A DNA stretch of 64,000 nucleotides from the NCBI GenBank assembly GCA_000091205.1, contig AP006498.2; one strand, 5' to 3'. Made by a program: the position numbers and the translations under genes. The notes beneath the pieces are model-generated. The model worked only from the letters and a program-made list of their open reading frames with translations, ran no database searches and was not told the origin of the DNA. This DNA comes from Cyanidioschyzon merolae (Eukaryota). Below are positions 11,596 to 55,088 of this stretch, piece by piece. The first letter of the stretch is position 1, and every line of letters begins with the position of its first letter.

Positions 11596-11930
11596 CAGAC
11601 AATCAGAATGTCCGTCTCGTTCTATAAACTACTGGTATGAACGTCTCTGCGAGTCGCTTGTCGTCAGGATGTCCGTCTCTTTCCATAAAATACAGGTATG
11701 GCAAGTTTCTACTTGCCGCTTGTCGTCAGAATGTCCGTCTCTTTCCATAAAATACAGGTATGGCAAGTTTCTACTTGCCGCTTGTCGTCAGAATGTCCGT
11801 CTCTTTCCATAAAATACAGGTATGGCAAGTTTCTACTTGCCGCTTGTCGTCAGAATGTCCGTCTCTTTCCATAAAATACAGGTATGGCAAGTTTCTACTT
11901 GCCGCTTGTCGTCAGAATGTCCGTTTATTC
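11596..11930. repeat. tandem minisatellite, 5.3 copies of a 61-62-bp unit GTCCGTCTCTTTCCATAAAATACAGGTATGGCAAGTTTCTACTTGCCGCTTGTCGTCAGAAT; first unit diverged in its middle
   Basis: units start at 11610, 11671, 11733, 11795, 11857 with partial copies at both flanks; copies 2-5 identical; each unit contains a perfect 7-bp stem / 4-nt loop hairpin GGCAAGT-TTCT-ACTTGCC. Confidence 0.9.
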
Positions 11931-12421
11931 AAGCAAATTTCATATATGCATCATTTCGAGGAGTCGGTGAAATCGTCCGTTGTTCGCCGCGCACGCATCC
12001 TGGCGTTCGGGATGCGCGCGGCGTTCGCGCAATCTTCGGACGGCTCATGTTATGATCGAGTTTCCCCGCTGATGTTCCGGAACAAGTAGTCAGATGTTTC
12101 CCATCCCTACCACTGGACCACGTCAAATCAAATGTACTCGTTTATACAGCATAATTTTGATCAAGTTCCATGACATGTGAAACGCAAACTGAGCCGCGTA
12201 CGCTTCTTGGTTCCGAGGCCTCTGGTATCTATCGGTCCGTGCTGAGCAGCTCACAAGCACATGAAGACCAGTTTCGGTTCGTCGACGCTGTACCGCGTCA
12301 TGCGGCGGGGCGCGATAGCGCTTCTAGTTCAGCCCTGCAATGAGGTCGGCCTAGCACTTCACGGTTCTTGGGCGTTCTTGGGCATGATTTAAATATTTAC
12401 GCGACAAATCTAGACGACTCG

Positions 12422-13690: not shown

Positions 13691-13829
13691 CGCGAAGCCC
13701 TGCAGCGCTGTGGGCCACGCCGCACAGAGCGCCTATTGGTGTGCGCCGCTCGCTCAAATCCTGCTCCGCCGATCGCTCTATCAACGTCTGGCGTACAAGC
13801 AACGTCCCAAGTTGATCCATCCATCTATG

Positions 13830-15300
13830 TATTTATACTCAGCAAAACGGATATCTTTCTAGGACCATAGAGTGTGTATAGAAACCTACTGACAGACGCC
13901 CCGTAGCATCAATGGACCCATGGGCTGCAATCAGCTTAAGTTTATACCTGCACACTTCGTGCATCAAAGGCTGCGTCGCAAAATTCACTCGTGTCTGCTC
14001 CGCGAGTCTCGTCTTCAGCACCGCTTTCCGTCTGACATTGATGGCGGTGTAAAAGTCCCAGTTCACGAATTCCATGCGTTTATCGCCTCTGGTGAAACGG
14101 ACGTATGCAAGGATGCCTCGAAATCATACCCTCCGTGCCACTAGTCTCGTGGATCTCTCCTCTTCTTCCTCACCTACTCTTCTTCGCACGACGGTCGGCG
14201 AGAAAAGGATCTTTTTCGTTATTTTTCCGGGAGCCGGCGACACCGGGCCTCCAGTATCCTCGATTTCCATGTACATAACTTTTCCTTGATTCTTTTATTT
14301 CTTCAAATAAATGCAGTTCTTTGTGCCCGTAGATAAGGAACTTCCCGGAGGGAGTGGGACTTGCGGAAGAGAGCCGAAACGTGTCCCGGTGTGTCATTGT
14401 GTGCCGAACGCTTTCGTGATTCGCCCAGTGGAGTGATCGTCACGTTTCACGATACAAAACGCTCCTTCGATGTGGTTGAGTCAAGTCGCGTACTGAGGAG
14501 TGAAAGGCGGCTCTACTCCGATAGAATCGGCAATAGCTCGAACACATGGGTAATGGTGAAATGCAACGTCGTCGAATGGACGGACGTCACCAGACTTCAG
14601 CGAGAAGTCTTCAATGATTCGACGAACTGTGTTCTGTTGTATATGCCTTCCCCAGGAGCGAAACGGAGACCTCCAAATGAGTCCACATCAGCAAGAACAG
14701 ATGATGTCCTCGTTCTGTTGGGGATCGATCGGACATACGACGATCCGCCCCTCCGCGAATACCCATGTACCATCCGACAGTTTCATCCGAATCAAGTCTC
14801 ATTGACTCAAAAAACAAACCAAAGTCCCTGTGCTTCACATCGATCGTGGCGTTCCAGGAACGCTGTAGGTGCAAATTCTGTGGAAGATGGCGGTGATTGA
14901 ACTAGGACTCTTTTTTGCGATTAGATTCCAGTGATCTCAGGATCCGCACCATCAAGCTGTTGAGAATCAGAGATGCCGGTTGCGGCTACTATGGTCGCTT
15001 TTGTTGCTCGTAAGTAGTTCATGTTGAAACCATTGACCGAAAGCAGTATCTGATATTACCATTTTTTGGCGCGGAGCGCAGATACTTGTTTCACTCAGTA
15101 TTCCTCAAGCATTTGAGTACTGTGTCAAGACTCACCTGAAGGAAGAATGTTGTCCTTCTTGCACGATTCAGTAAAGAATATATCCTGCAAACAAGTCGTC
15201 GACGATGCATACGGCATGTAGCATCATGATGTCGATCTACTGCTACACACTGAGAAGGAGCATTCGATGACACAGACACCAGAGATGGAACGTAACTGAG
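13830..15300 (-). mobile_element. decayed Fanzor (TnpB-like) element copy with multiple frameshifts/stops; 3' tail (right end) at about 13830
   Basis: minus-strand peptides MEFVNWDFYTAINVRRKAVLKTRLAEQTRVNFATQPLM (RuvC-III region and conserved tail), KSYVHGNRGYW (compare [11 protein letters not shown] of the intact copy) and ETVGWYMGIRGG (RuvC-I region); nucleotide homology of about 70-80% with 44160-45600 along about 1.4 kb. Confidence 0.6.
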
Positions 15301-18139: not shown

Positions 18140-18280
18140 GCTGGAATGCGCACCTAATCGGAGAACGCTGGCCCAAGTAAACGTTTTGTCAATGAAAAAA
18201 AAGCTGGAATGCGCACCTAATCGGAGAACGCTGGCCCAAGTAAACGTTTTGTCAATGAAAAAAAAAGCTGGAATGCGCAG
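18140..18280. repeat. direct tandem duplication, 2.2 copies of a 63-64-bp unit GCTGGAATGCGCACCTAATCGGAGAACGCTGGCCCAAGTAAACGTTTTGTCAATGAAAAAAAA
   Basis: unit starts at 18140, 18203, 18267 (third truncated); about 150-300 bp upstream of the ACBP start codon. Confidence 0.85.
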
Positions 18281-19133
18281 GCGCTCTGCATTCGCCAAAT
18301 GCGATCGTGCGGTGCCTGCTTCCGCTGCTGCTTCTCGCGCATTCGGGCCCTGGGCAGTGCCTCGTACATTCGTCGATACTGTACCACACGAGTCGATCCG
18401 GCTGCATCAGAGAGCAGCAGCTTTAGCGGGATACGAGTTTTGGTCGAAGGTAGGTCGTTTAGATTCAAGGAGCTCATGATGTGGAGTTTTGAAGTGAATA
18501 GCGCCCGCGACATCACCCGAGTCGATGCAATCTGCTTTCGCTGATGCGGGAGACGGAGTATTTCCGATCACAAAACGTTTACGTTGACCATGTATCCCAG
18601 ATTGCGGAGTGGTTACTGGTTTTCGGGAAAGCGTTCATTATAACGCAACCTACCTTCAAGTTCTATGGCCTGTTCTCAGATATTCTGGTCGTTTTGTTCG
18701 TTCTATTATGCGCCGAGTTCCTGTCTTACTGCACCCGCCGTGGCGCTTATGCCGTTGAGGCAGATGCTTCACGGAGCTGAATAGCATTGCCATATCACTA
18801 GCGGCTTCGGTTCGAGGCATGATTCATTCGACATGGAGTCGGGCTATATGATTATCCTGGGAGCCTGCAAGCTGCGCAAACAGGCCGACAGTCTGCGACA
18901 GCGTGAAGCGATAAGCTGGGAGTCCATTGCGACCAGGGCGACGCCCAGATGTAGCGTTCCAGTCCCAGTTCCAGAATGAACTGCATTGCGGGCGAGTTGC
19001 TTGGATCTCCCTACAGCTTTAGCTACTGAGGGGTGAATGAAGCACGAGCCTAGGGGACATTCTTGGACATATCAAGGATCCGTACGAGCAGGAATTTCGA
19101 GAGGCCATCAGAAACCGTTTCGCGTCCCACTCC

Positions 19134-21017
19134 ATGAGTATTAAAAAGGCTTCTTCAGAACTAATGCATATGGTGAAGGAGATTTATCGCGACATGACTG
19201 ACATCATAACAGTGGAGGTTCCGGAAGAATTTTGGAACAGGAACTTTATTCGTCACCTGATGCCTGGCACATGGGAAACGTCAAAGAGAGATGAACTCGT
19301 GCGTGCGTTCCACGAGGGTCGCGCCGAATTCCGCTTCAAGGGTACTCGATACAGGGGCGATAGGGATATTTACGACTATGGGGCTATGAAGTATCTCACG
19401 AACCTGAAGAACCATTTGACAACCAACCTCGAACGTTTCATAATAAGAGCCGTATTTGCGCTCTGCCCGGGCATCTCTCGCAAAGGGATATGGGCGATTA
19501 TCAATGACATCACGAACGATCGCAAGCATGAAGATGGGGTCGAATTCGTCGACAAGAAGGAGTCAAACGAGAGCACGAATGAAGCTTCTGTGATCCGTGC
19601 GGTTGTACAAGAGCACCGTGCAGTCGTGGGGCTGGCGAATCCGCCAGAAAAGATATCAGAGTTGAAAAAAGATAAGGAAAGATACGATCGCCTCGTCCTG
19701 CGCTATTTCCTGTTTTTGGACCGAGAACTCGAACGCAAGGCGGAGATGAAACTGAGTGAGGAAAGCAATGAAGAGTGGGAGAGACAGAAGGCTTTCCTAG
19801 TGGGTAAGCGCTTCAATGGCGTTCTGTTGTGCAACATAAAGTCACATTTCGTGAGTATCGACTCCGGAGTCCTCTAAGGCATCATGAAGGAGATCTGTCC
19901 GGAGTTCGATGTCAGCAGGGAGGAATTCACCGGCGAAACCCGTCCGACGTACTGGAAGAGTATCTTCGATTTCAAACGTCTCAAAGTGAGCAGGCAAAAG
20001 TTGTTCACTGGGATAATCGAAACCGATGGAGTAGCCATGTCTGTAAACTATCGGCTGTTGAAGAAAGATCGTCCAGTTCCGCCCTCGGCTTCGCCAGTGA
20101 CGAAGGATGAAGAAAAGGAGGAGGCCGGTCCTGCGACACAGGATGTGCAGGATAACGACCTTGTCGTTGGCGCGGCGAAGGATGAAGATGAGGAGGAGGC
20201 GGGTCCTGCGACGCACAAAGTGCAAGATAACGACTTTGCCGTTGGCGCGGACCCCGGAAACACAAATATCATCACCATGGCAGTACCCAAGCGTGTGGAA
20301 GATGGCGCTGACGGCAACTTACGTCAGAAAGACATGCGTTTGTTGAGATTCTCGAGAGCGAGACACTATCGAGAATCGGGAATCATGAATGCGAGGAAGA
20401 AAATCGAGACTTGGAATGCTGGAATAAAGGACCACTTGGAAGCTATGAGCGAGGTGACGAGCCGAGGAGCGGGCTTTCAAGCTTTCCGGAAATTTATGAA
20501 AGTTCGCGTTGCTCACTGGGATGCGCTGTGGGAAGAATATACAAAGCCTCGGTGGGCTCGTCTGCGTATGAATCTATACTGTGGGAAGCAGCGGGCGTTC
20601 GCGAACTTTTTCAATCAGTTGAGCGCCCTGAAGGAGGATGAAAGTCAGAGGCTCGTCGTAGCATACGGAGCAGGGCGCTGGAAGACCCAAAAAGGGTGTA
20701 CGCCAGCTCCAACTACAAGAACGTACAAGGAGTGTGCACGGCGTTTCGTTACGATACCTGTAGATGAGTTTCGAACATCGTATACACACCACGAGCTGGG
20801 TTGTACACTTCAGAGAGTGGAGATGGAAAAGTGCCAGAGGAGCCCTGAGGAAATCGCAAAGTACGCACCGCTGACGGAGAAGCAAATGGAAAGGATGGCG
20901 AAAGGTCGACGACTACTTGCATTAGTAAGTACAACCAATGATAGCAAGAAACGTATGGAGTTCGTGAACCGAAACTTTAACGCCGCTATCAATATAAGGA
21001 GATGTGTGGCGCTGTAG
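19134..21017 (+). CDS. Fanzor-like RuvC nuclease (TnpB homolog); two track ORFs (19134..19877 and 19884..21017) are in the same frame and separated only by one TAA
   Basis: Ruv[19 protein letters not shown] (GxDPG with catalytic Asp), Cys/His cluster [20 protein letters not shown], Ruv[22 protein letters not shown] at the C-terminus (TnpB/Cas12 RDxNAAxNI class); total about 625-660 aa; in-frame extension upstream to 19041. Confidence 0.7.
20118..20264 (+). repeat. internal tandem duplication (2 x about 72 bp) within the Fanzor ORF immediately N-terminal to and including RuvC-I
   Basis: [24 protein letters not shown] / [24 protein letters not shown]; DNA units gaggaggccggtcctgcgacacaggatgtgcaggataacgaccttgtcgttggcgcgg... 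and gaggaggaggcgggtcctgcgacgcacaaagtgcaagataacgactttgccgttggcgcgg... Confidence 0.75.
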
Positions 21018-21326
21018 AAAAGACCCTCCAGAGTTGAGAGAATTTCGTGGGACAACCTCTCAAAGTGGAACTATATGAGAAAAAGTTGAGAGAAGTAGTA
21101 GGTGGCCGGTCCAAAAAAGGGGAGGCGTCTGCACGTCAGTTGGCGACTTCGTGTCTAGGGCGCATTCGCCGCCACTACTGTACACCGCTGGCGACTGCTT
21201 TCGACTTTTGAAAGGCGTTCGCTGTCGCTGCCATGTGCTTCCGCAAAACCGCCTCCTCTGAACGGCCTCGACATCCGCTTTCGCAATAAAAGGCTCCGCG
21301 GGGTTTCCAATTGCTAAAACACGAGC

Positions 21327-22376
21327 TTAAAGACGGCGGTGTCTTTGAAAGATAAACACCGACTTGTCCCCGAGATCGTCCCGGATATTCTGCACAAATT
21401 TCCGTAAGGAAAATACCGTCATGAAAATGGCGACTACTGTGCTCAACGCGAGTCCCGAGTTTCCGGACGCGGTGCTCCACCAACCCAAGAAGTGTCCACC
21501 AACGAGTACCGGGACCAGCATGGCAAGCACCGACGCTTCTGCGCGTCGGAAACAGAACGCTTCCTTGAAGAACACGCCTGTCAGCGCCGCCGCCACCCAG
21601 CCGGCTCCCGTTAGAACGCCAACTGGATGCTGTATCAACCAGTGCACATACAAGTCGTGCGTGTTTGTCCATACCATCCACTCACTCAGTGCCGAGGTGA
21701 GTATTCCAAAGCCCAGCAAATACTGCAGCGCTCGATGAAGCGGCTTCAAGTAGATGTGGATGTAGTGTAGTGCGATACCCAGCCCGGCGACGCCACTCCA
21801 GTAGAGCGCCTCCACGAACGCAGTCGACCTGAATTGAGCCAAGTCCAGTGGGAGCTCTCCGTTCCCACTCGTTAACCAGGCCGCTCCAACAGCTGTCACA
21901 GCAGCTAAGGTAACCAACGCCATGCCCGCACGGTAAGCGCGCACCTCGCGAACGTCGGCCTCGGTTAGGAACCACTCACCAAAGGCGCCGGCGTACGGAC
22001 CACCGAGAACTTTATCTTCGTTTTGGCTGGACTTGAACGAGTTTGGTGAGAGCGACAGGCGCCAGCAGCGCTCCATACCACCATTACAACGCCGGCGACC
22101 TTGTCGTCGCTGCTGAACGCACCTGCTGTTCCGTGCTCTGAGCAAGGCGCGCATCTCAAATTGACGAGACGCTTGCCGACAGCACGTCTTGCTCCCATGT
22201 GTGCTAGGTAATAAAACCGTTCGAGAAAAAGACGAGTAAACAAAGTTGAAAGTCATGACGAACGGACCGTCGACGAGAGCGAAAAGCGCGTCTCGAAACC
22301 CAAGGAGATTATCGTTCCAGTGTTTCCGCCACTGCACGGCGGCCGATGACGACTTCGAGCTGCATACGCGGCACAA
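21327..22376 (-). CDS. predicted multi-pass membrane protein of unknown function (true start probably an internal Met)
   Basis: 349-aa ORF; at least 5 hydrophobic helices (MALVTLAAVTAVGAAWL, AFVEALYWSGVAGLGIALHYIHIYL, LLGFGILTSALSEWMVW, VGVLTGAGWVAAALTGVFF, VLAMLVPVLVGGHFLGWW). Confidence 0.4.
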   Translation of the reverse strand: MCRVCSSKSSSAAVQWRKHWNDNLLGFRDALFALVDGPFVMTFNFVYSSFSRTVLLPSTHGSKTCCRQASRQFEMRALLRARNSRCVQQRRQGRRRCNGGMERCWRLSLSPNSFKSSQNEDKVLGGPYAGAFGEWFLTEADVREVRAYRAGMALVTLAAVTAVGAAWLTSGNGELPLDLAQFRSTAFVEALYWSGVAGLGIALHYIHIYLKPLHRALQYLLGFGILTSALSEWMVWTNTHDLYVHWLIQHPVGVLTGAGWVAAALTGVFFKEAFCFRRAEASVLAMLVPVLVGGHFLGWWSTASGNSGLALSTVVAIFMTVFSLRKFVQNIRDDLGDKSVFIFQRHRRL

Positions 22377-22514
22377 CGCTGGACTTGGATACGAAACCCG
22401 GTACCTGATTCAAATCGAAGTTTGAACGGGTAGCTGTGTATCTCGAAAATCGAGGCTGTATATATACAAGAACGAAAGAGTGCAACATAGCGAGCTGTTG
22501 TTTGTGGCACTTTA

Positions 22515-22895
22515 CATATTGTGAGTAAACCAGAAAATGTTCCACGGATACTGGGGGTAGATTCATACCCACCAATAGAAACATCCGAGCATTTATGGAC
22601 TGGCCGCCTGCTTTCGGCATCAGCTTCTCCTTATAAAAGCATCAGAGGCTGCATCATGATTTTAGATCGCCTCAGGTCTTCAAGTCTGTTCTTCAGTGCC
22701 GCAAATCGTCTGATATCTATGCTCGCGTTACAGTCTCGTTTCACAAACTCTAGGCGTTTATTGCCACTGGTTGAACTCATGATTGCAAGCATTGCTAGCA
22801 CTGGTGCCGTCAACCACTCTACAGTTTCGTCTGTCGCTCATCTTCTCCTTTTCCCATTTCTTCGTTATTTGCTCTTCTTCGCTCCATGTTCGGCG
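22515..22895 (-). mobile_element. Fanzor 3'-terminal fragment A (C-terminal about 110 codons with frameshift plus conserved tail), inverted relative to fragment B
   Basis: minus-strand peptide AMLAIMSSTSGNKRLEFVKRDCNASIDIRRFAALKNRLEDLRRSKIMMQPLMLL (RDxNAxxNIRR); tail ...GGAACATTTTCTGGTTTACTCACAATA ends about 22515. Confidence 0.65.
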
Positions 22896-23245
22896 AGAAG
22901 AGCTATTTGCCCGACGACACAATGATGAGCCTGTCGTGGCACTGAGGTCGCGAGTTCTAGCAATCCTTGCATATCTGCGTTCAACCAGAGGCAATAAACG
23001 CATGAATTCAGTGAACCGAGGCGTCGACGCCAGCATCAATATCAGACGAGTTGCAGTGCTAAAGACGAGCCCCCAGGAGCTGACGCGAGCCAACGCTGTC
23101 CGGCAACCTCTGATACTCCAGGTATTCCGGGAGAAACGGAAGCCGATAGCATTCGACCGCTCCATAAATGCCACGAGACGTCTCCAAGTGGATATACCAT
23201 GCATCCCCATGATTGGGGAATGTTTTTCGTTTTATCGTTATTGCC
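22895..23245 (+). mobile_element. Fanzor 3'-terminal fragment B, forms a palindrome with fragment A
   Basis: peptide RSRVLAILAYLRSTRGNKRMNSVNRGVDASINIRRVAVLKTSPQELTRANAVRQPLILQ; conserved tail to about 23245; about 70-75% nucleotide identity to the reverse complement of fragment A. Confidence 0.65.
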
Positions 23246-44159: not shown

Positions 44160-45600
44160 GCTGGTCGACGATTATTGTTCGTGAAACAAAAAATGTCCCA
44201 CGACTATGAAGGGTAAAATGAATACCCGAGTGCAGATGCCTCCCAGCCGTTTCTTGACCAGCCGCCTGCTAACGACATCAGCTTCTCGTTATGATAGCAT
44301 CGGAAGCCGCCGGACGAGGGTCGCTCGCGTGAGCTCCTCGGGTCTCGTCGTCAGCACCTGGCATTGTCCGATATTGATAGCAGCATTCAAGTCTCGGTTC
44401 GCGAACTCCCCGCGTGCATTGGCGCTGGCTGAAGTCATCAATGCAAGGATTCCTCGAACTCGTGTCCTCGGTGCCATTTGGTGCTCGGCCAGCGCTCCGT
44501 ACCATTCTGTCGCCGAAGCGCTGCGCGGCCTTCTCTCCATCTCGACGTTCTGAAGTGACCACCCCAGGTCATCCAATAGATTATGTATTTCTTGCATATA
44601 AATGCTCTTGTTTCTGTCCTTAGGTGAGGACGTTCCCGAAGGGAGACGGATTTGCGGAAGCAAGACCAGATGTACCCTGGTGCCGCCATGTGCTTAGCGC
44701 TTTAGCGATTCAACTAGTGGAGCGATCATTACGTTTCATGGTAATAACACTCCTTCGATGGGGTTCAGCTGCAGGTTGTACTGATGCATGAAAACCAGCT
44801 CTTCCCCGATAGAATCAGCAAATGCTCGGACGCGAGGGATGTGCTCAAATGCCTCGTGGTACAATAGAAGCAAGTCGCGAAACGTTACACGAAAAGTCTT
44901 TTATTTATCGACAAAGTGGTTGCTGCTGATATATGAGCGTTTTCTACGTGCGAAACTAAGACAGCCAAATGAATTCTCTATAGCTAATACAGCTGATGTC
45001 GTCGTTCTCTTCGGGATCGTTGATATAGTCAGCCGGCTCCCTGATCCGCGAATACCCACAAACGTTCCGACAGTTTCATTCGAAGCAATTCTCATCAACT
45101 AGAGAAAAAAACCAACGTCCCTTGGCTTCGTATCGATTCCGACGTTCCAGAAACGCTGTAGGTGCAATTTCTGTGGAAGGTGGCCGTGCGTGATCTACGA
45201 CTCTTTTTTGCGACTGAATCCTAGTGTTTACGGGACCGCACGAACGAGCTGTTGCGAAACAGAGAAGCCTGTGGCGGTTACGATCGCCGCTTTTGCTATT
45301 TGCGTAAGATGCTCAACCGGTCCTTTTCTACCATTGACCACAAGCACGCTTTAAGAATACAATTCTCTGCCCAAGGCGCGTATACTTGTTTCGTTCTGTG
45401 TTCCTCAACCATCTGAGTACTGTGGTATAACTGTGCTTATGGAGGAATGCAGACCTCTTCGCACTGCTCAGTAACGAATGCATCCTACAGGCAAGTCACC
45501 CACGATCTGTTCAAAACATAACATCATGACTTCGATCACCTGCGATAACCTGCAAAAAGAGCATTCGGTAACACGCAGGCGTGGTTGAGTAAAATTGAGT
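44160..45600 (-). mobile_element. decayed Fanzor (TnpB-like) element copy 2; RuvC-I Asp replaced; conserved 3' tail ends about 44180
   Basis: minus-strand peptides LQNVEMERRPRSASATEWYGALAEHQMAPRTRVRGILALMTSASANARGEFANRDLNAAINIGQC (RuvC-III), ETVGTFVGIRGSGSRLTISTIPKR (RuvC-I with D to I); tail GAGAAGCTGATG..GGCGGCTGGTCAAGAAACGG..GGGACATTTTTTGTTTCACGAACAATAATC. Confidence 0.65.
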
Positions 45601-51107: not shown

Positions 51108-51305
51108 CATCGATAGATGCTGGCACTCGGGTGCAACAACAACAACAACAGCAGCGATCTATGCGCAAAGCAATATCCTCGTGTTACGGTAGCCGGGCAC
51201 TGTAGTCATCGATAGATGCTCGCACTAGGGTGCATCAACAACAACAACAGCAGCGATCTATGCGCAAAGCAATATCCTCGTGTTACGGTAACCGGGCACT
51301 GTGTT
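51108..51305. repeat. direct tandem duplication, 2 x 99 bp (about 93% identity) containing a (CAA)5-(CAG)2 tract
   Basis: CATCGATAGATGCTGGCACTCGGGTGCAACAACAACAACAACAGCAGCGATCTATGCGCAAAGCAATATCCTCGTGTTACGGTAGCCGGGCACTGTAGT at 51108 and near-identical copy at 51207. Confidence 0.85.
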
Positions 51306-53371: not shown

Positions 53372-55088
53372 ATGGAGGAATATGATGATGTGAATGACCG
53401 ATCACAATTGATATATAAATGCATTGGCGGGTGATGCGCGTTGGCGACATCGCGGCAGCCGAGGCAGCTGGCACCGACCGCGTTGTGACGCAGGCGTTCG
53501 TGATCGCGCTGCGCAGCGGTCTAGTGCGGGCGACTTCCTGAAGTCGTGCTTCCGGTCTCCCGGGTACGACACTGCACCCATCGGGCCGGTTTGCTGTGAG
53601 AGCGCAGCTCTGGACACGGTGGACCGTGGAAATCATCCGAGAAATGGGTACGTTTGAAACCTAAGTGACTGAGAGTGCTCGCAATCGCACGAAATCCCTG
53701 TTAGATCCATCGATCATGTGGGGAGGAATTCCCTCAGTCATTCGAGACTGGGCGGCATCCGCGGTGCGTTCCACCAGCGCAGCGCTATCGGGCTTTCGCA
53801 CGAGTCGACGCGCTCAGCTTCTGCATAACCGGTTTTTCTTGGAGTTGAATCACTTGAACGAACTGGGATTCCCCGGGTATGCCATTTGTGTTGGAAACCT
53901 GTGAAGAGACCGGGTTGCCTTTGAGGCATCTCAACGTTCCGCAGGTCGCATACCAGTGCATCCATCGGGATCTGCGCCTAGACTGATCTAGCGCTTTCCC
54001 TCGTATGCTGAGTCTGTATCCGAAACTGGCTGTGGCGCCAGCATTTTTCTTTTTTGTTTCACAGAAAGCTAACTTAGAGCAGATATGCCTGCGATGACGC
54101 TATCTCATACCCGCACCCAGAAAAGCGTCCGCCACGTATCCAAGCACCGCTTCCCATATTTGCCCGCGAAGATACACATCATTTCCTCCGTTCCACTCTG
54201 TGGCGAGTCTGTCGTGATCCCCATCAATGACACCTATCGCGCCGGTGTGCATGCAGCAAGGATACGAGACGCGTTTACCGTAACACTACGAGCGTCTGCT
54301 CGAGATCTCCGCTCCATAACGAATCATGATAATGATGATATATGTCAGTCAAACGAAAGCGTTTCACGACCGTTGCTAACGAATATATCCCCAAACGCGC
54401 AAACGGCTCCCAGCCTTTTTCGCCCGATCGACTGGTATCGTTTTCAGATTTTATCCCTGCAGAGTTCGAGCCTGAAAGACCGCCCTATAAAGTTCGCTCG
54501 CCTCAGCTCCCCAGGTCTGATCATTAGCACCACACATCGTCTGATGCTGTGTGAAGTCTTGGTTCGGGAACTCCATGCGTATATTCCCGCATGTTGAACT
54601 CATGTTTGCAAGAATTGCTCGAACACGTACCCTCTGTGTCACAAGAATCTTGTCATCGCCCCGTGGGGCAAATACCTTCTATCGTCTATCTCTCCATATT
54701 TTTTTATTCTGATTCTTCGTTCGAAAGTCGGCGAGATGAGGGTTTTTTTTCGTTTTTCCGGCAGCTGGTGATCACGTCCCCGCAGGATCCTCGCCTTTTC
54801 CGTCCATACATTTCCCTCGGATTTTTATTTCTTCGAATCAGCGCACGTCATACATACTTCCTATGAAAAGTAAAAAAGCATTTGATGACACTTACCTGGT
54901 TATGGAACACCCTTTAGTTGAGGCATTACCATCATGGTACACTTGTCAGGAAACAATGCCCCTGTCTCATGCAAATGCAGACGCCTATTGCGCGTCGAAT
55001 CTGCGTCTGCGACTGCTGCGTCGATTGCGCAGTTTTCGAACACGAGCGCTCGCCCCCAGTGCCTCTATTCGAGCGTTAAACTCGGGTT

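Follow-up and report, generated by a model that had tools for sequence, protein, structure and literature searches.

The conserved segment downstream of RuvC-III in a decayed CMe-1A Fanzor1 copy of Cyanidioschyzon merolae is mostly former coding sequence and ends in a short candidate ωRNA scaffold

As an established rule, the omega RNAs (ωRNAs) of Fanzor nucleases begin at the 3′ end of the gene and continue through the right end of the transposon. In Fanzor1 (Fz1) systems the first stem-loop (SL1) always has 7 bp, and in SpuFz1 and PpFz1 just one more, SL2, precedes the guide (PMC11423790); the GtFz1 ωRNA overlaps 17 codons of the open reading frame (ORF), the ωRNA of ISDra2 TnpB likewise overlaps the ORF 3′ end, and S. 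punctatus harbors "ghost" elements in which the ends are kept and the ORF is absent (PMC10432273). CMe-1A is a Fanzor1 element of Cyanidioschyzon merolae, present in approximately 150 copies with about 80% identity each to a consensus of 3169 bp; some of the copies are reported to be intact; it is without terminal inverted repeats (TIRs), its target-site duplications (TSDs) and class were undetermined as of 2013, its 5′ 635 bp are shared by TE-N2_CMe, and no RNA, hairpin, or classification is given for it in that report (PMC3627910). Here we analyze a 64,000-nt stretch of C. merolae 10D chromosome 16 covering CMP273C to CMP290C (this whole stretch is called the window), in which an earlier note had singled out positions 21018–21190, behind a Fanzor copy taken to be intact, as a non-coding ωRNA scaffold and transposon right end. 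We suggest, with a probability of roughly 0.6 for the explanation as a whole, that this interval is the 3′ end of a dead CMe-1A copy, the right end of which would serve as a minimal ωRNA in intact family members. Its anatomy, an ex-coding tail followed by the ancestral stop and a short non-coding right end, is practically certain. The original observation is real but was mis-described, and it concerns for the most part an element that is ordinary and already catalogued, with an ωRNA candidate that is plausible and had not been described.

The element was delimited with the published consensus and with metagenome relatives. A protein search with the 377-aa ORF of copy 1 (c1) recovered 223 relatives from JGI/ENA metagenomes at approximately 50–90% identity (mostly 60–85%), and a scan of the metagenome contigs gave 79 family loci (designated by L-numbers), from which alignments of 45–59 de-duplicated copies were made. 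Base 1 of the Repbase CMe-1A consensus, taken from Additional file 2 of PMC3627910, corresponds to 18565 and its last base to 21217, with 83% identity over the first 140 nt of copy 1 and 90% over the last 275 nt. This alignment covered the two ends; between them homology was checked against the metagenome copies, and homology to the 79 loci begins at 18559–18565 and stops at about 21219. Copy 1 shares with the published element the single Fanzor1 ORF, the stop codon and the lack of TIRs, but differs from the consensus as a deletion derivative with nonsense and frameshift mutations. An internal deletion of about 580 nt at 19058/19060 has removed the start codon and N-terminus, a TAA and a TAG interrupt the frame (the TAG at 21015–21017 had been correctly located), and indels shift it further (a 1-nt insertion and a 5-nt deletion near 21024–21036, net −4 nt, and two 1-nt deletions near 21113). 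The nuclease triad keeps D (ADPGNTN) and E (VDEFRTS), and RD has become RN in NRNF; NRDF is retained in the family consensus and the metagenome homologs. Set against the Fanzor1/TnpB signature (RuvC D…E…D, [TS][TS]-x-x-Zn finger-x(5,50)-RD), copy 1 shows RN, two premature stops and a missing N-terminus. It is a dead copy of the known CMe-1A and not the intact gene it had been taken for. Pfam returned nothing useful for the copy-1 ORFs and the metagenome homologs, and a PDB sequence search with a 593-aa homolog returned no match, so that Fanzor1 family membership rests on the published assignment and on motifs. The ORF also holds a 75-nt tandem repeat (20101–20250) encoding an acidic unit, which occurs in 2 to 6 units in homologs, indicating that the unit number is unstable within the family.

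Homology downstream of RuvC-III was confirmed by MAFFT and window self-BLAST at all five loci previously named, over about 250 nt, but a sixth copy on the minus strand (c6 in Table 1) had been missed. The six tails belong to two families, copy 1 being family A and c2–c6 remnants of a diverged family B. The shared sequence blocks listed in the earlier note do exist, mainly between c3 and c5, but its terminal GGRACATTTT…ACAATA block is found only in family B, and copy 1 ends differently.

The tails resemble each other because of ancestral C-terminal coding sequence read in one frame. Relatives continue for about 49 more codons in one frame (…EKRPPELTRENFVGQPLKVELYEKKLEAVVGGRSKKTGRRLHVSWRRFV*); the homologs P0002, P0004, P0009, P0012 and P0021 run on past …NAAINIRKCAVL in a single frame, reading EKRPPELTRENFVGQPLKVELYEKKLEAVVGGRSKKAGRRLHVSWRLLG, and tblastn on the loci gave the same one-frame continuation in almost all copies. 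The C-terminus is …SWRRFV* in the majority consensus of 41 copies as well as in that of Repbase. Within the window, c2 and c4 carry the homologous ~45 residues in the RuvC-III frame with no gap; in c3 and c5 an early stop arises from a 5-nt deletion common to both, so that their downstream DNA is homologous to coding sequence but out of frame; and the frame shift of copy 1 arises from its own separate indels. Bases 21018–21155 are the last ~47 codons of the nuclease, silenced in copy 1 by a nonsense mutation and indels, and 141 of the 173 flagged bases (21018–21158, 82% of the interval) are ex-coding. The peptides that had been quoted as lying in shifted frames all lie in one and the same frame. 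Among the 41 copies, the ratio of diversity at codon position 3 to that at positions 1 and 2 was 2.25 in the upstream RuvC domain (95% confidence interval (CI) 1.89–2.66), 3.38 in the RuvC-III motif (CI not computed), 1.35 in the tail (1.04–1.75) and 1.13 in the post-stop segment (0.76–1.57); the tail is coding sequence under relaxed constraint. A codon of family A in RPPE[LWS*]TR (equivalent to ~21036) occurs with all four bases at its middle position (TTG, TGG, TCG, TAG); the TAG variant means an in-frame stop in many copies, and the downstream frame is still conserved.

These data bear directly on the version of the earlier note, in which the whole ~170-nt tail after RuvC-III was a non-coding ωRNA scaffold, conserved as DNA irrespective of frame, with a guide from about 21186. 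The overlap of the ISDra2 TnpB and GtFz1 ωRNAs with the ORF 3′ end (PMC10432273) could be cited for it, together with a third-position excess weaker in the tail than upstream (1.35 versus 2.25), a slightly lower third-position diversity (0.233 versus 0.272), a mean minimum free energy (MFE) z of −1.30 for a segment that takes in RuvC-III and half of the tail, the first one, and the 84%-identical block that c3 and c5 keep downstream of their shared 5-nt deletion. However, the relatives and two window copies are read in one frame, the mean MFE z of the coding tail is only −0.27, and the candidate tail stems (CCGGUC/GACGGG, CGUCU/AGACG and the alternative AGAC/GUCU) did no better than shuffles (282–308/500). 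In addition, homology runs 28 nt past 21190, and the region of 21186 is a highly conserved spacer, CCACTACTGTACAC, instead of a variable guide. Coding constraint in one consistent frame, the outcome that the earlier note had itself named as speaking against its reading, was found for 82% of the interval, and we regard a whole-tail scaffold as highly improbable.

The true non-coding right end comprises 21159–21219 only and stops exactly at the right end of the element. The Repbase consensus ends at 21217, the following TT is present in 33/42 (+1) and 38/42 (+2) flanks, the ends of BLAST alignments between copy 1 and the loci cluster at 21219, and in the alignments of 45–59 copies similarity is lost a few bases past …GAAAGGCGTT. 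The right end is slightly fuzzy, as homology stops between 21219 and 21232. Nucleotide diversity is 0.235 within the non-coding right end versus 0.54 in the flank, where weaker conservation extends from +3 to +7 and the sequence looks random from +8. A conserved inside with a variable flank is true of any transposon end and does not discriminate for an ωRNA. The flagged interval therefore lies just inside the CMe-1A right end, as had been proposed, but the end itself is at 21217–21219, about 28 nt further on. A homology break at ~21186 would cut off the terminal hairpin described below, and a guide in copy 1 would begin at 21220; the boundaries proposed for the other copies were right within a few nucleotides.

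RNAfold on 45 copies predicts two stem-loops in this right end (Table 1), of which the terminal hairpin was found in nearly all copies. It occurs in two variants with different pairing registers, CGUCGUUCGA-CUU-UCGAACGGCG and AACGUUUUUC-UUUU-GAAAGGCGUU, which differ at 7/24 aligned positions and both make 10-bp stems; random sets of 7 substitutions reach the stability of the second variant in 2% of trials (p about 0.02). In L042 the terminal hairpin takes sole first place in stability among the 3134 windows of 30 nt in the whole element, in L060 the top two of 1682 windows fall at it, and in L013, c5 and L035B it is among the top 2–3 most stable places. Mean MFE z values of −1.61 and −2.01 were obtained for the 65 nt after the stop and for the last 135 nt, respectively. 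Where copies depart from the consensus pair of the terminal hairpin, G·U (24) outnumbers A·C (4), which indicates pairing on the sense strand. Family B carries a hairpin at the same relative place that is non-alignable to family A, in c5 GUGGGACA-UUUUU-UGUUUCAC, with A-U/G-C and C-G/U-A swaps between copies and a second small hairpin preceding it. The terminal hairpin is in all probability a selected feature. An alternative helix, UGCCGCCA/UGGCGGCA, taken from the fold of the Repbase consensus, was set aside, as about five aligned copies break it uncompensated, judged by eye without a pair count.

It could be argued that nothing here is functional, and that the tails are alike by descent from one decaying transposon lineage with incidental hairpins. 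All six window copies are relics (pseudogenes or fragments), the within-family covariation is marginal, and the post-stop diversity is near that of synonymous-like sites. Nevertheless, the terminal hairpin ranks first of ~3100 windows in well-kept copies, survives the 7-substitution switch between variants and is kept in diverged family B, and an asymmetry of 24 to 4 is unexpected under neutral, strand-symmetric decay; we therefore consider purely neutral similarity improbable.

Given this anatomy, it is reasonable to suggest that in intact family members the ~62-nt right end would be transcribed together with ~15 nt of flanking DNA, and that the transcript would be a minimal two-stem-loop ωRNA consisting of SL1, SL2 and a guide. 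The terminal hairpin may also be a cis signal marking the element end for transposition. The position of the proposed scaffold agrees with a Fanzor ωRNA, in that the ancestral stop (21156–21158) and the right end (21217–21219) enclose 62 nt of conserved non-coding sequence, and the low diversity inside followed by the high diversity of the flank has the order of a scaffold and a guide. An Fz1-type fold, with a 7-bp stem and a terminal hairpin, is predicted; comparative evidence supports the terminal hairpin, and the SL1-like stem has conserved sequence without covariation support. The layout resembles the SpuFz1 and PpFz1 ωRNAs, with a scaffold between the Fanzor1 stop and the right end, two stem-loops of which the first has 7 bp like SL1, and a variable flank next, all of it predicted on the CMe-1A side. 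The scaffold would be 62 nt, compared with 75 nt in SpuFz1, and the ORF-less, end-keeping fragments of the window resemble the Spu-1 "ghost" loci. In contrast, there is no sequence similarity between the CMe-1A right end and the SpuFz1 or PpFz1 ωRNAs, and SpuFz1 elements have 30-nt inverted repeats, whereas CMe-1A has none. The likeness is a resemblance and not a demonstration. The scaffold designation of the earlier note is plausible for these ~62 nt (21156–21219) but not for the coding tail, which shows no structure signal; for the ~62 nt themselves, we hold an ωRNA scaffold to be tentative, at slightly below even odds on the predicted folds.

Several observations weigh against an ωRNA in the right end. 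The terminal hairpin of copy 1 does not stand out (−7.7 kcal/mol, a stability equalled at 22 places of the element), and the first stem shows 10 A·C versus 4 G·U departures, largely via TAG to TAA changes that break it. In family A the two post-stop stems show marginal covariation (pairing in 86%, with 5 double-change pairs versus 2.5 expected and 22/500 shuffles), in a test that compares pair counts with 500 shuffles and is not phylogeny-aware. RNAalifold on the whole 298-column tail alignment was weak (−8.3 kcal/mol, covariation term −0.7), and its global fold, mostly of long-range structure, is not believed; the stems proposed inside the coding tail bring no further signal. Rfam gave no match over the whole window at gathering thresholds or over 20700–21400 at E up to 10. 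The post-stop diversity of 0.235 is close to the third-codon-position diversity of 0.27, indicating weak primary-sequence constraint. Furthermore, a transposition signal acting as single-stranded DNA would equally lead one to expect a hairpin on the sense strand.

The last point leads to the rival in which the terminal hairpin, perhaps together with all of the non-coding right end, is only a DNA-level cis signal for an unidentified transposase, which might act on single strands as in IS200/IS605, IS91, Helitrons and Replitrons, and no ωRNA is made. For such a signal, the preference for G·U over A·C shows merely that one strand matters, the hairpin stands exactly at a boundary that is itself fuzzy (21219 to 21232), and both termini are kept in internal-deletion derivatives. 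No consistent TIRs were found in either family, and no TSDs when left and right flanks were compared copy by copy, as in PMC3627910. Both ends carry a short T-rich direct-repeat-like motif, reminiscent of Replitrons, which have direct terminal repeats and a right-end hairpin and of which none were found in red algae (PMC10288648). The left-end region likewise holds a strong nested palindrome, GATGGA…GCTTTC-GGG-GAAAGC…TCCATC, at consensus ~42–78 (window ~18606–18642, decayed), which is kept in most copies. Like ISDra2 of IS200/IS605, CMe-1A has a right-end subterminal hairpin in or beside the scaffold (a candidate one in CMe-1A), no TIRs or TSDs, and a conserved short motif 5′ of the left end that can be compared to a target site or target-adjacent motif; but the ISDra2 ωRNA overlaps >100 nt of the ORF, whereas the ORF-overlapping part of CMe-1A is without structure signal, and there is no Y1 TnpA in CMe-1A. 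With Helitron2 and Replitrons it shares a 3′ hairpin that is subterminal and shows compensatory changes, a right end that is fuzzy, and the direct-repeat-like motif at both ends, but not a Rep/Hel or Rep gene or the 5′-TC and CTRR-3′ termini. Of the Helitron features (5′-TC or T, CTRR-3′, a 3′ hairpin 10–30 nt from the end, and asymmetric TIRs (ATIRs) for Helitron2), the hairpin is present, and the right end reads …GGCGTT, which breaks the rule. No transposase, of the HUH type or any other, accompanies the element, and the right end of TE-N2_CMe (taken as consensus ~550–635) showed by eye no similarity to that of CMe-1A. To our knowledge, the right end is transcribed into ωRNA in all characterised TnpB/Fanzor systems, so that a cis role would not exclude an RNA role. 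A signal acting at the DNA level only is in our view unlikely, and the hairpin could be a guide-RNA scaffold, a transposition signal, or both.

The left end adds a possible target motif. It starts at 18565, and the preceding four bases (18561–18564) are TTTC in 11/13 independent copies with left ends of the CMe-1A/TE-N2 type, with T-rich sequence further upstream; we infer from this pattern only that TTTC is a candidate target motif or target-adjacent motif (TAM). These results raise the possibility, rather speculative and to us somewhat doubtful, that the ~150 CMe-1A copies and the ORF-less family B derivatives each supply a flank-derived guide, used in trans by a few intact Fanzor1 genes beside a T-rich (TTTC-like) TAM, while the hairpin doubles as the end signal of an unclassified transposon lacking TIRs and TSDs. 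The left end and the sequence immediately preceding the stop codon show a 9-nt inverted match (GACAAAACG / CGTTTTGTC), which was rejected, since it exists at the consensus level only and two copies compared by eye showed no matching changes.

Since both the element and the general ωRNA rule were already known, the finding as first stated adds little, its main argument of DNA conserved across frames having misread a decayed coding tail, and with CMe-1A catalogued since 2013 its novelty is confined to the candidate RNA partner. The element has remained unclassified since then, and a literature search turned up no RNA partner for CMe-1A. The present analysis narrows the probable scaffold to ~62 nt with a well-supported terminal hairpin and offers TTTC as a candidate TAM. 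C. merolae is a thermoacidophilic model alga with a small genome, which grows at low pH and about 42 °C and is amenable to genetic work. If the ωRNA proposal is true, an active compact Fanzor1 and ωRNA pair from this alga would be of interest to genome editing, and it would make it possible to test directly, in a eukaryote, if the same hairpin works in transposition as well as in guide-RNA function.

The family B remnants are undescribed in PMC3627910. In c2, c3 and c6 a Fanzor N-terminus (MEKEVEDPGGPVSP…-like) runs straight into the last ~70 codons, which the right end follows, and c5 has a different internal deletion; by their sequence these fragments are internal-deletion derivatives that keep both termini, and the view that they begin at RuvC-II was rejected because of these N-terminal junctions. 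About 1 kb at 70% identity lies upstream of c2 (14296–15273, −), c5 (44586–45574, −) and the metagenome copy L035B (L035:5873–6669, −). This shared stretch holds a degenerate Tc1/mariner-like transposase remnant with an LNPIE motif, and c2, c5 and L035B lie 3′ of it, which suggests that family B was once carried with a DDE transposase. In comparison with Fanzor1 borne by Tc1/mariner elements (e.g., PUl-1), the remnant gave no Pfam match and TIRs were not found. The copies c3 and c4 stand head to head at 22512–23245, their inner ends being about 34 nt apart; the pair is flanked by the DUF2301 gene and a gene for a 2386-aa GEF-like protein.

Table 1. Positions in the window of the CMe-1A copy, its right-end features and the family B remnants
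Feature	Position	Strand	Basis or remark
Copy 1, decayed Fanzor1 transposon CMe-1A	18565–21219	+	Repbase consensus ends and metagenome homology
In-frame TAA splitting the Fanzor frame	19875–19877	+	Tyr in relatives (GVLYGIM)
RuvC-III motif, catalytic Asp to Asn (NRNF)	20967–20996	+	Family: NRDFNAAINI
Premature TAG	21015–21017	+	Family consensus GAG (Glu) in VLEKRPPE
Former coding C-terminal tail of Fanzor1, …KRPPELTRENFVGQPLKVELYEKKLEAVVGGRSKKTGRRLHVSWRRFV, frameshifted in copy 1	21018–21155	+	Single frame in relatives
Ancestral stop codon (TAG) of the CMe-1A Fanzor1 ORF	21156–21158	+	41-copy and Repbase consensus
Predicted first stem-loop, UAG·CUA and GGCG·CGCC, 7 bp, 1-nt bulge, variable interior	21156–21177	+	RNAfold, 45 copies
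Predicted terminal hairpin abutting the right end	21197–21216	+	~7 bp in copy 1, 10–12 bp in well-kept copies
Right-end boundary	21217–21219	+	Repbase consensus end 21217 and flank statistics
Candidate guide flank if an ωRNA is made, cgctgtcgctgccatgtgct	21220–21239	+	Unrelated among copies; putative guide role
c2, RuvC-III through tail to right end; decayed terminal hairpin 13841–13860	13829–14063	−	
c3; hairpins 22555–22570 and 22525–22545; head to head with c4	22512–22741	−	
c4; terminal hairpin 23215–23235	23014–23245	+	
c5, best preserved; hairpins 44211–44227 and 44181–44201	44169–44399	−	Fold MFE −19.2, z −4.47
c6; RuvC-III motif partly deleted; terminal hairpin 54348–54367	54336–54576	−	

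Modules of the CMe-1A ends also occur apart from complete copies. A perfect 63-nt tandem duplication lies at 18140–18265, each unit of which includes the CMe-1A left-end motif TGACAAAACGTTTAC as an exact inverted copy, with an A-run after it, and this motif has 3 matches in the window versus 0.11 expected. The 63-nt module is found at 87–92% identity in many metagenome loci, and from …ACGTTTTGTC on, L048 and L039 carry it in place of the CMe-1A right end. The module probably represents the left end of a related element that is oriented the opposite way. A right-end module directly 5′ of another CMe-1A copy, the 5′ region of which is unlike copy 1 (L007:2234–2329 and L048:1960–2071), looks like a tandem or mosaic 5′ end. 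Five "solo" right-end modules were not counted as separate events, as they represent one locus in five related genomes (L007 and the orthologous L018, L019, L027 and L061). In L024 (~700–800), the last ~50 nt of the right end are tandemly duplicated (CCGCCACTACTGTACAC…GGCGTTT twice).

Elsewhere in the window, ten long ORFs, between CMP273C and CMP290C of a 908-kb chromosome, are exact matches to annotated C. merolae 10D proteins, and the Fanzor locus is bordered on either side by ordinary host genes, for a sterol methyltransferase, the mitochondrial L2 protein and the DUF2301 protein. Unrelated tandem repeats occur at 11603–11952 (62-nt units, ~6 copies) and 51108–51302 (99-nt units, 2 copies, 96% identity).

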